From Candidatus Saccharimonadota bacterium (GTDB lineage: Bacteria; Patescibacteriota; Saccharimonadia; Saccharimonadales; Saccharimonadaceae): DNA of 32,000 nt. Made by a program: the position numbers and the translations under genes. This document shows, in pieces, positions 9,293-29,690 of this stretch. The stretch spans positions 420,001 through 452,000 of the forward strand of contig CP006915.1 in NCBI GenBank assembly GCA_000503915.1, written 5' to 3'. Position 1 is the stretch's first letter, and every line of letters begins with the position of its first letter. Under the pieces are notes generated by a model. That model searched no databases, was not told the origin of the DNA, and was given only the letters and a program-made list of their open reading frames with translations.

Positions 9293-9437
9293 CGGGGTTT
9301 GGCGCAGTCTGGTAGCGCGCACGCCTGGGGTGAGACGAGCCGGTGGCTCGTCGTAAGGAAATCTTCCGATGGCGGCTATGCTGCCAATCGTGAAGTTTCG
9401 GGGTCGCCGAAGGTGACCGTGAGGAACCTCATGCCGG
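9293..9437 (+). pseudogene. disrupted tRNA-Pro(GGG) copy carrying the 86-nt element in its anticodon loop
   Basis: 9293-9330 is identical to the first 38 nt of the intact tRNA at 9466. After the insert, CCGTGAGGAACCTCATGCCGG loosely resembles GCGTGAGGTCATCGG. There is no T loop or 3' acceptor strand. Confidence 0.75.
9331..9416 (+). ncRNA. unclassified 86-nt structured RNA element, copy 1
   Basis: Collinear with 29388-29473: 62/86 identical, no indels. Hairpins at 9336-9350, 9358-9399 (nested long hairpin) and 9404-9416. 9 compensatory pair changes between copies. Confidence 0.65.
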
Positions 9438-10600: not shown

Positions 10601-10936
10601 AGCAGCCCGCTAGGCGATCGCCGTATCCTAACGGATAGGGAGGAAAGTCCGGGCAGCGTAGGACAAGGCAGTTGCTAACGGCAACCGGAGGAAACTCTAG
10701 GGAAAGTGCCACAGAAACAAAACAGCCCCGCCTTGGTGGAGCTACGATGAAACGAGTGCGGTAAGAGCGCACAGTCCGGCATGGTGACATGTCGGGGAGG
10801 TAAACCCAGCCTGCTGCAAGGAGGATCACACTAAAGAGTTGTCCGCTCGTGATCCGCTAACCGCTCGAATAACGTGGCAACACGCTATCTAGATAGATGG
10901 TCGCCCCAGACAGAACCCGGCTTATCGGCGCGCTGC
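10601..10936 (+). ncRNA. rnpB: RNase P RNA, bacterial type A
   Basis: Conserved blocks GAGGAAAGTCCGGGC, CCACAGAAA, GCGGTAAGAGCGCAC and AGACAGAACCCGGCTTAT. The ends pair (GCAGCCCGC / GCGCGCTGC). Extended -10 TGgTATAAT at 10585-10593. Confidence 0.9.
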
Positions 10937-10943
10937 ATCAAAA

Positions 10944-13725: not shown

Positions 13726-14133
13726 GGGGCTGATACAGCTTTCGACAGATGGATCTTAACAACCTGCTCTGCAAGTCGCTTCAACAGACGTAATCTGTTA
13801 TATAATTGCAAACTTTATTGCAAAAGCAAAGACTGGACTAGCGAAATTAGCTGATGCTGTTCGCGTTCAGACCCTTGCGCCAGCATTGGTCTAATCTCCA
13901 ATGCCGTGGTCGTCCAGATACCTATTATGGATGGACTGCGTCATAGTAATAGGTAAACGATACGATCCAGTGCTCCAGTGGATCGTGGCGAGACTGTTCT
14001 GTAGCCCATGCTTTGTTCACGTTCGTTCCGTTTCTTGGAACCGAGCATGGCTAAAACAACAAATGGAACTAAGCTTGTAGACGAGTAGGAGGTTACCGTT
14101 TGGACGCGGGGGCAGTACCCGCCAGCTCCACCA
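13726..14133 (+). ncRNA. ssrA: tmRNA
   Basis: 5' end GGGGCTGATACAGCTTTCGACAG and 3' end GGACGCGGGGGCAGTACCCGCCAGCTCCACCA form the tRNA-Ala-like domain with G3:U. Candidate tag ORF GCA at 13808 to TAA at 13892-13894. TGgTATAAT at 13701-13709. Confidence 0.9.
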
Positions 14134-27304: not shown

Positions 27305-28909
<1,605 letters not shown>

Positions 28910-29084: not shown

Positions 29085-29113
29085 AGCGCTTCCTTCTTGA
29101 GGAAGCGTTTTTC
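29085..29113 (+). terminator. terminator-like hairpin after the 16S processing stem
   Basis: AGCGCTTCC (29085-29093) / GGAAGCGTT (29101-29109), then TTTTT. Confidence 0.45.
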
Positions 29114-29144: not shown

Positions 29145-29173
29145 TTGTAGCGAAGGGTAATTTACGCTAAAAT
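29145..29173 (+). promoter_or_regulatory. candidate internal promoter for the spacer tRNA cluster
   Basis: TTGTAG, 17 nt, TAAAAT, 30 nt upstream of tRNA-Ala. Confidence 0.4.
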
Positions 29174-29202: not shown

Positions 29203-29279
29203 GGGGACATAGCTCAGTTGGCTAGAGCACCTGCTTTGCAAGCAGGGGGTCCAGGGTTCGAGTCCCTGTGTCTCCACCA
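29203..29279 (+). tRNA. tRNA-Ala (anticodon UGC)
   Basis: GGGGACA-TA-GCTC..GAGC-A-CCTGC-TTTGCAA-GCAGG-GGGTC-CAGGG-TTCGAGT-CCCTG-TGTCTCC-A-CCA, with G3:U70. Confidence 0.95.
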
Positions 29280-29284
29280 CGTAT

Positions 29285-29321
29285 GGGGTAAGTCGGGCTT
29301 CGGTCCGTTCTTACTCCACCA
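29285..29321 (+). ncRNA. tRNA-Ala-like acceptor/T-arm minihelix ending in ACCA
   Basis: GGGGTAAG-T-CGGGC-TTCG-GTCCG-TT-CTTACTCC-A-CCA. An 8-bp acceptor-like stem with G3:U and a 5-bp stem capped by a UUCG loop, then discriminator A and CCA. Confidence 0.5.
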
Positions 29322-29334
29322 AGAGTACATGTAT

Positions 29335-29485
29335 GGGCGCCTAGCTCAGTTGGCTCTGGTCTCTCGTTTACACCGAGAGGGTCGGGGTGAGAACTGCCAG
29401 TGGCAGTTCGCAAGGCGACTTTCCGAGGTAAGCTGTGCTTACCATCGTGAAATCGCGGGCTCGCCGAAGGTGAGTCGAGTCCCGA
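29335..29485 (+). pseudogene. disrupted tRNA-Val(UAC)-like copy carrying the 86-nt element in its T arm
   Basis: GGGCGCC-TA-GCTC... with an intact anticodon arm TCTCG-TTTACAC-CGAGA. The D arm is degenerate. The T stem TCGGG/CCCGA is split by the insert. There is no 3' acceptor strand. Confidence 0.7.
29388..29473 (+). ncRNA. unclassified 86-nt structured RNA element, copy 2
   Basis: Collinear with 9331-9416. Hairpins ACTGCC-AGT-GGCAGT (29393-29407), GTAAGC-TGT-GCTTAC (29428-29442) and TCGCC-GAA-GGTGA (29461-29473). Confidence 0.65.
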
Positions 29486-29500
29486 AGCTTAATAAATTAT

Positions 29501-29577
29501 GGGTTGTTAGCTCAGTTGGCTAGAGCATCTCGTTTACACCGAGAGGGCCGGGGGTTCGAGTCCCTCACAACCCACCA
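29501..29577 (+). tRNA. tRNA-Val (anticodon UAC)
   Basis: GGGTTGT-TA-GCTC..GAGC-A-TCTCG-TTTACAC-CGAGA-GGGCC-GGGGG-TTCGAGT-CCCTC-ACAACCC-A-CCA. Confidence 0.95.
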
Positions 29578-29580
29578 TTT

Positions 29581-29657
29581 GGGGCTATAGCTCAGTTGGT
29601 TAGAGCGCGTCACTGATAATGACGAGGTCGATGGTTCGAGTCCACCTAGCCCCACCA
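29581..29657 (+). tRNA. tRNA-Ile (anticodon GAU)
   Basis: GGGGCTA-TA-GCTC..GAGC-G-CGTCA-CTGATAA-TGACG-AGGTC-GATGG-TTCGAGT-CCACC-TAGCCCC-A-CCA, with one A:C mismatch in the T stem. Confidence 0.93.
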
Positions 29658-29665
29658 CAATAGGT

Positions 29666-29690
29666 ACCGCCTGGAAGGGCGGTTTTTATT
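29666..29690 (+). terminator. terminator-like hairpin between tRNA-Ile and 23S
   Basis: ACCGCC (29666-29671) / GGCGGT (29678-29683), then TTTTTATTT. Confidence 0.5.

Follow-up and report, generated by a model that had tools for sequence, protein, structure and literature searches.

We found that the spacer between the 16S and 23S rRNA genes of a Candidatus Saccharimonadota bacterium (Saccharimonadaceae) encodes a 37-nt hairpin with the complete acceptor identity of tRNA-Ala, and comparison across related genomes leaves us highly confident that this minihelix is a real, selected small-RNA gene. The window, by which we mean the whole stretch of DNA that was analyzed, is 32,000 nt long and corresponds to positions 420,001 to 452,000 (forward strand) of contig CP006915.1, assembly GCA_000503915.1; positions given without a genome prefix are positions in this window. 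An earlier note on the same DNA had left three readings side by side, a processing signal, a chargeable mini-tRNA and a tRNA remnant. The comparative data favor the chargeable mini-tRNA, as the positions that never change across relatives are exactly the set that bacterial AlaRS reads in the acceptor stem, and the minihelix may well be a small RNA that carries alanine without reading codons.

The minihelix is one member of a cluster in the interval between the 16S gene (27305–28908) and the start of the 23S gene (30058), both placed by Rfam, in the order tRNA-Ala(UGC), minihelix, tRNA-Val-like copy, tRNA-Val(UAC) and tRNA-Ile(GAU) (Table 1). The CCA of tRNA-Ala ends at 29279 and G1 of the hairpin follows 5 nt past it at 29285, the spacing that the earlier note had reported. 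The acceptor stem of this tRNA-Ala (GGGGACA/UGUCUCC) matches the minihelix at pairs 1–4 and differs from it at pairs 5–7. Given the terminator-like hairpins that bracket it, the cluster may be transcribed as a unit of its own between 16S and 23S. Reading the sequence by eye also gave a weak TTGTAG-17-TAAAAT, under the threshold of the scan, at 29145–29173.

Table 1. Features of the window that bear on the minihelix, in order of position.
Feature	Position	Strand	Basis or remark
RNase P RNA, class A	10602–10940	+	Rfam RF00010, 251.6 bits
tmRNA	13726–14133	+	Rfam RF00023, 102.9 bits
Terminator-like hairpin and T-run	29087–29107	.	Directly after 16S; upstream boundary of the cluster
tRNA-Ala(UGC)	29203–29279	+	ARAGORN and Rfam; upstream neighbor of the minihelix in the tRNA cluster
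Leader A(−2) U(−1)	29283–29284	+	Predicted RNase P context, with the cut between 29284 and 29285
Whole minihelix-Ala RNA, predicted mature species of 37 nt	29285–29321	+	Sequence, fold and covariance model
Acceptor-like stem, 5′ strand (G1 G2 G3 G4 U5 A6 A7 G8)	29285–29292	+	
Inner 5-bp stem CGGGC/GUCCG with UUCG tetraloop	29294–29307	+	
Acceptor-like stem, 3′ strand (C65′ ... C69 U70 C71 C72)	29310–29317	+	
Discriminator A73 and genomically encoded CCA	29318–29321	+	
Degenerate tRNA-Val-like copy with ~100-nt insert	29335–29500		
tRNA-Val(UAC)	29501–29577		ARAGORN
tRNA-Ile(GAU)	29581–29657		ARAGORN; starts 3 nt past tRNA-Val
Terminator-like hairpin and T-run	29666–29683	+	Directly after tRNA-Ile; downstream boundary of the cluster

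The hairpin consists of GGGGUAAG (29285–29292), a single U, CGGGC (29294–29298), the UUCG loop (29299–29302), GUCCG (29303–29307), UU and CUUACUCC (29310–29317), and ends with A (29318) and CCA (29319–29321); within it the G at 29287 pairs with the U at 29315 to give G3:U70. The structure that had been described from the letters, an 8-bp stem on a 5-bp stem with a UUCG loop and a terminal A and CCA, is exactly the minimum free energy (MFE) structure, at −19.6 kcal/mol with 98% of the ensemble and a z of −6.0, and 0 of 200 shuffled sequences were equally stable. The fold is retained when the hairpin is co-folded with tRNA-Ala and flanking sequence, and with 40-nt flanks on each side it is the MFE structure, outcompeting rival folds, in 52 of 53 loci. 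Pairs 1–4 (G-C, G-C, G:U and G-C) are common to tRNA-Ala and the window tmRNA (GGGGCUG...CAGCUCCACCA), as had been noted earlier, and A73 and CCA likewise agree. The tmRNA is an anticodon-less AlaRS substrate of this genome, and the minihelix would be the other.

The further likening of the hairpin to an acceptor-T minihelix held only approximately, since the 13–14 layers of helix are similar but the T loop is absent and the junction carries a bulge or internal loop. A strict acceptor/T-arm minihelix has a 7-bp acceptor stem, a 5-bp T stem and a 7-nt UUCRANY T loop, whereas the window copy combines 8 + 5 bp with bulges of U and UU and most relatives have 6 + 6 bp with an A-A/G-A loop. Judged by its sequence, the inner stem-loop is not a T arm: no T-loop motif was found in it, and its loop is UUCG, GAAA, UUAC or others in relatives. 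Neither ARAGORN nor cmscan, the latter even at E ≤ 10, called a tRNA at 29285–29321, and the D, anticodon and T arms of a canonical tRNA (RF00005) are absent. Against the tmRNA model RF00023, cmscan gave 9.2 bits (E 0.3), where the gathering score is 47, and the match was confined to the two ends of the model. With their defining arms absent, the minihelix is a member of neither the tRNA nor the tmRNA family.

A BLAST search with the spacer detected the hairpin in five other genomes of the same family, and in one congener the four differences from the window copy amount to two compensatory pairs. A covariance model (R1) scored the window copy at 57.2 bits, its sole match in the 845-kb genome, and detected the minihelix in 43 of 151 sampled family genomes, each time as exactly one copy. 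The 3′ end of 16S is assembled in only 71 of these 151; among the 71, 37 were positive by R1 and one more (G075) yielded a divergent extra copy, with G3:U70 retained, in a filter-free search of spacers. Conservation and covariation in related Saccharibacteria had been named as a check on the hairpin, and it is conserved, with compensatory changes, in these 38 of 71 readable family genomes. Four further families of the class (f34, f60, f74 and f84) also carry it, and the copies span more than 35 genera, 5 families and more than 50 related genomes. R1 gave 0 matches in ~144 genomes from other classes of the phylum, a specificity control which indicates that the model does not match at random. 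The minihelix is dispensable, as among relatives whose spacer is readable about half, complete genomes included, have no copy.

Several genomes were set apart by their rRNA loci. Three of them (G141, G082 and G106), each a single contig with 99% marker completeness, matched neither the 16S 3′ end nor a spacer-type tRNA-Ala; their rRNA locus is either missing from the assembly or masked, so they are not countable as minihelix-negative. In two others, G031 (C6:3011–3187) and G051 (C1:4101–4275), tRNA-Ala and tRNA-Ile lie between 16S and 23S on the opposite strand and thus are not co-transcribed with rRNA; the search found no minihelix in G031, and at locus L015 of G051 none lies directly after tRNA-Ala.

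Pairing in the hairpin is maintained through changes on both strands. Covariation was tested on 27 distinct sequences, in which 6 of 13 pairs changed on both sides, paired cells made up 91.5% as against 40–46% with the partners slid, and the covariation score was 0.242 versus 0.112, with 0 of 500 shuffles reaching 0.242. Pairs 5 and 6 covary (U-A/C-G and G-C/A-U) and positions 5–8 vary with their partners, pair 7 often being A-A or G-A. The inner stem covaries as well, pairs 10-23 and 11-22 being altered on both sides, and the tetraloop is UUCG, GAAA, UUAC or UUAU in relatives, so that a stable hairpin is kept while the loop sequence is not.

The identity positions, tallied over 53 copies (50 of them distinct), behave differently from these adjacent pairs. 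G1-C72, G2-C71, G3:U70, A73 and CCA are each present in 50/50 distinct sequences and G4-C69 in 49/50, the sole exception having G:U (U69). A change of U70 to C would strengthen the helix, yet none of the 50 distinct sequences shows one, and the uncompensated mutation of G3:U in orthologous spacers that, according to the earlier note, would tell against its proposal was not found. R1 was trained with G:U at pair 3 and therefore leans slightly to G:U; since typical matches reach 30–59 bits and the cut-off is near 24, it should nevertheless have picked up a G-C variant. With filters off, no decayed or G3:U70-mutated orthologue was found in 33 spacers of model-negative genomes, and 12 Ala-to-Ile spacers without a minihelix held no remnant of one, the hairpin being either intact or cleanly absent. 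The never-changing G3:U70 reads as the signature of tRNA-Ala itself.

The invariant positions of the minihelix correspond to the bacterial alanine determinants listed in PMC9976931, among which is G3:U70, as the earlier note had correctly stated. The AlaRS acceptor set is present, with G3:U70, A73, G2-C71, G4-C69 and a CCA end that is single-stranded. With the D arm absent, the D-loop nucleotide G20, which is a minor determinant for alanine in bacteria, is impossible here, and synthetic minihelices without G20 are still charged (PMC2175331).

Single hairpins followed by NCCA number 234 in the 845-kb genome versus ~164 in Markov-shuffled genomes, and a generic hairpin of this kind is not rare. 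The complete alanine acceptor set (GGGG...CUCC-A-CCA) occurs once in the genome and in 0 of 5 null genomes. As generic NCCA hairpins are common, the significance of the minihelix comes from its identity set, location and conservation, not from the hairpin alone. One other hairpin was considered as a minihelix for a different amino acid, a glycine-like one (G000:C1:616054–616091, minus strand) with G1-C72, C2-G71, G3-C70 and U73; it was rejected and put down to chance or mobile DNA. It is one of two long hairpins ending in NCCA in a GC-rich stretch (G000:C1:615900–616260, L150) that was found in 0 of 19 congeners. This stretch adjoins a tRNA-like remnant (42 bits, ending in ACCG and with an odd anticodon loop) and is probably the edge of a mobile element integrated at a tRNA.

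The AlaRS of this genome is encoded outside the window (G000:C1:46169–48166; L107:982–2979, minus strand) and is a 665-aa protein with catalytic and editing domains that ends at the tRNA_SAD motif, the C-Ala domain being absent. The C-Ala domain binds the tRNA elbow, and recognition by an AlaRS without it should therefore rest on the acceptor stem even more than it does in the E. coli enzyme. A separate AlaX-like protein of 245 aa is encoded at G000:C1:111391–112128. In a coupled AlaRS-FemX assay, 35–36-nt minihelices, a 24-nt microhelix and the bare acceptor duplex of tRNA-Ala all work (PMC2175331), which bears out the earlier statement that minihelix-Ala is charged in vitro. The natural hairpin, with its junction bulge or A-A/G-A loop and its tetraloop, is unlike the synthetic minihelices in that assay.

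We suggest that the minihelix would be transcribed along with its neighbors in the tRNA cluster (Ala / minihelix / Val-like / Val / Ile), that RNase P would cut after the A-U leader to make G1 the 5′ end, and that the 3′ trailer would be trimmed back to the encoded CCA. The resulting ~37-nt RNA would then offer AlaRS G2-C71, G3:U70, G4-C69 and A73, plus G1-C72 and CCA, and AlaRS would load alanine onto it. Since the anticodon, D arm and T loop are absent, the Ala-minihelix would be unable to decode and would act off the decoding pathway. Its role there may be to donate alanine to an aminoacyl-tRNA-dependent transferase, the genome having two Fem-family genes, or to serve, charged or uncharged, as a partner that modulates AlaRS. 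These steps, from RNase P cutting and 3′ trimming through alanylation to downstream use, are what we infer from sequence, and we put the chances of RNase P excision and AlaRS alanylation in vivo at about even.

The two FemAB genes (G000:C1:310314–311426, plus strand, and 315069–316100, minus strand), one of which adjoins a Mur ligase, encode proteins whose best solved relatives are FemX of S. aureus (6snr) and of W. viridescens (1ne9/4ii9). The determinants that FemX of Weissella reads are C71 and C72 of the acceptor stem (PMC2175331, PMC2655667), both invariant in the minihelix (50/50 distinct sequences). Among family genomes with a 16S 3′ end, a Fem gene is present in 35/37 RNA-positive versus 26/34 RNA-negative ones. 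Orthologues of Fem no. 1 accompany the RNA 19 to 1, but both mark one clade, and G116 (99% complete, 3 contigs) has a 58.6-bit minihelix and no Fem gene at E ≤ 1. Confounded by clade and with this counter-example, the co-occurrence suggests a link between RNA and enzyme only weakly, and we consider it doubtful that the minihelix is the alanine donor for the two Fem-type cell-wall transferases. The wider proposal, an anticodon-less alanine carrier that would be charged by the C-Ala-less AlaRS for non-ribosomal peptide bonds such as Fem cross-bridges, is likewise put forward as a tentative possibility. If there is such a dedicated carrier, its pathway would be uncoupled from the translating tRNA-Ala pool. 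Two other leads were rejected: alanyl-phosphatidylglycerol synthase as the consumer, as PF09924 is absent from the genome, and a Ddl-less wall pathway, as Ddl is present.

The sequence just upstream of the minihelix is also conserved. AU occupies positions −2/−1 of G1 in 42/45 copies versus 19–33% in neighboring tRNA genes (e.g., 6/25 and 16/49). Bacterial RNase P prefers U(−1), on which substrates with no T loop would be expected to depend. Features of an RNase P substrate are present in the acceptor-type helix of ~12 bp, the 3′ RCCA and U(−1), a class A RNase P RNA is encoded in the window, and the conserved AU leader fits RNase P cutting, which would make the 5′ end of the minihelix. The AU leader and first bases also form an AUG-GGG-UAA/UGA mini-ORF; it has no SD, is lost in GGGGCA/GGGGCG variants and was dismissed as coincidence.

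Placement of the minihelix relative to tRNA-Ala is variable. The gap between them ranges from 3 to 195 nt across copies, and in f74 and f84 the minihelix lies between tRNA-Ile and tRNA-Ala, i.e., upstream of tRNA-Ala. In three genomes it is outside any rRNA/tRNA operon: the G145 copy lies 11 nt past the end of a promoter-like TAGACA-17-TATACT (10/12) and is followed after 7 nt by a terminator, the G309 copy has its own terminator and neighbors (462 aa and 302 aa) in which no Pfam family was found, and the G023 copy is just upstream of rplU. The stand-alone copies in these three relatives indicate a small-RNA gene and not only spacer punctuation.

These observations bear on the reading of the hairpin as a cis-acting processing signal only, that is, an extra site for RNase P cutting and exonuclease stopping, e.g., one that frees the 3′ end of tRNA-Ala, with the released hairpin functionless. 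Nearly all copies lie between tRNA genes of the 16S-23S spacer, A(−2) and U(−1) are kept more strongly than in genuine tRNAs, CCA is encoded, the 5-nt gap to tRNA-Ala in this genome resembles the 3-nt gap from tRNA-Val to tRNA-Ile, and about half of the relatives dispense with the hairpin, all of which speak for such a signal. We know of no need of RNase P for G3:U70, G2-C71, G4-C69 or A73, and yet these positions are invariant or nearly so (G4-C69 in 49/50) over 50 sequences while adjacent pairs covary. The variable gap, the upstream position in f74 and f84 and the stand-alone copies, which have no neighboring RNA to process, also argue against it, so that the punctuation proposed in the earlier note, although the AU leader fits RNase P cutting, is disfavored as the sole function; we regard it as unlikely. 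The same invariant identity set also speaks for a decoy or regulator that would bind AlaRS, AlaX or another reader of the tRNA-Ala or tmRNA acceptor end and act by competition or sensing instead of carrying an amino acid, such as by buffering the activity of AlaRS or titrating a toxin or nuclease directed at acceptor stems. Co-transcription with tRNA-Ala would make its dose track that of tRNA-Ala, no partner transferase is obligatory (G116), and accessory or conflict-related functions typically show such a patchy distribution. No toxin or regulator emerged as a candidate, neither sequence complementarity nor a linked gene points to a target, and productive binding by AlaRS would yield charging anyway, which makes this reading overlap with that of a chargeable mini-tRNA; we think it quite unlikely as a separate explanation.

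The two other alternatives fare much worse. Duplication and decay of tRNAs do occur in this spacer, which has the degenerate tRNA-Val copy at 29335–29500, and the inner hairpin GGGCUUCGGUCC is faintly like a T arm (GGGUUCGAGUCC), as might be seen in a neutral, decaying remnant of a duplicated tRNA-Ala that had lost its D and anticodon arms. Positions 5–7 are identical to those of the adjacent tRNA-Ala in 0/48 loci, which rules out a fresh copy of the tRNA-Ala ends, and 50 distinct sequences argue against recent horizontal copying. Each positive genome has a single intact copy, over more than 35 genera and 5 families, and the copies show compensatory changes, an identity set invariant in 50 sequences and no half-decayed forms; on these grounds we rejected the tRNA remnant that the earlier note had listed and hold it to be highly improbable. 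Still less probable is a hairpin that terminates or attenuates transcription within the operon, although a scan flagged the inner stem (29294–29307) and the following TTCTTACT as terminator-like. What looks like a T-run is the outer stem's 3′ strand, and an intrinsic terminator has a GC-rich hairpin followed directly by a U-run, which is not the arrangement here: CCA is followed by AGAGUACA in the window and by A-rich sequence in relatives (A in 33/45 copies and a U-run in none). The stand-alone copies, moreover, need a separate downstream terminator.

The chargeable mini-tRNA that we favor resembles several known RNAs in part. Minihelix-Ala is the textbook demonstration of an "operational RNA code" read in the acceptor stem alone, and to our knowledge it has so far existed only as a synthetic substrate and a hypothetical tRNA ancestor. 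Synthetic minihelix-Ala and microhelix-Ala are reportedly the work of Francklyn and Schimmel in 1989. More recently, 35/36-nt minihelices charged by AlaRS were used by FemX of Weissella viridescens in vitro (Villet et al. 2007, PMC2175331). The synthetic minihelix-Ala and the RNA described here are alike in size (36–37 nt), in G1-C72, G2-C71, G3:U70, G4-C69, A73 and CCA, and in having no anticodon. The synthetic ones are laboratory deletions of tRNA that retain the T stem and T loop, whereas ours is encoded in the genome, conserved by selection, as far as the comparisons indicate, and closed by a tetraloop, with a junction bulge or A-A/G-A internal loop. The tRNA-like domain of tmRNA (RF00023) is an AlaRS substrate that occurs naturally without an anticodon and agrees with the minihelix in pairs 1–4, A73 and CCA; tmRNA, at ~400 nt, also has a T arm and T loop, an SmpB-binding analogue of the D loop, pseudoknots and a tag frame, all of which the minihelix lacks, and the genome has a normal tmRNA besides it.

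By analogy, the nearest functional precedent for a dedicated carrier would be the non-proteinogenic tRNA-Gly isoacceptors of staphylococci, which are donors for FemX/A/B (PMC7826273). They too are encoded among tRNA genes. Charged by the normal synthetase and reserved for the cell wall instead of translation, they resemble what is proposed for the minihelix, but each is a full cloverleaf with anticodon that escapes EF-Tu through T-stem changes, whereas the minihelix has no decoding half. Spacer tRNAs of rRNA operons, which are RNase P processing sites, likewise lie between rRNA genes and are, unlike it, complete decoding tRNAs. RNAs of the mascRNA type are released by RNase P from a tRNA-like acceptor helix, as is predicted for the minihelix, but are eukaryotic, cloverleaf-like and not aminoacylated. 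Neither spacer tRNAs nor mascRNA account for a bare hairpin whose alanine identity set never varies. We found no description of a natural bacterial minihelix-Ala in full-text literature, a search whose coverage leaves out most subscription journals.

A natural, selected, genome-encoded minihelix-Ala, if confirmed, would mean that cells really use half-tRNAs. It would open a non-decoding aminoacyl carrier to direct study, including its consumer and its avoidance or use of EF-Tu, and would bring a new class of small-RNA gene into genome annotation for ultra-small bacterial episymbionts, some of them culturable with their hosts. If the hairpin is instead uncharged and keeps the full AlaRS identity set for another reason, it would be a new kind of tRNA mimic.

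We also noted features of the tRNA complement around the minihelix. The genome (G000), a single contig at 99.7% completeness, has 43–44 tRNAs by ARAGORN with and without intron mode and by RF00005, and these searches found no tRNA-Asp or tRNA-Asn. A partial tRNA match (G000:C1:419934–419995, minus strand) is located immediately ahead of the window start. The tRNA-Val-like copy next to the minihelix (GGGCGCC...) has an anticodon arm identical to that of the genuine tRNA-Val, and its T loop holds the ~100-nt insert, which is made up of three hairpins. BLAST detected relatives of this insert in many genomes, and a second copy is present at 9327–9416 of the same window, upstream of tRNA-Pro.
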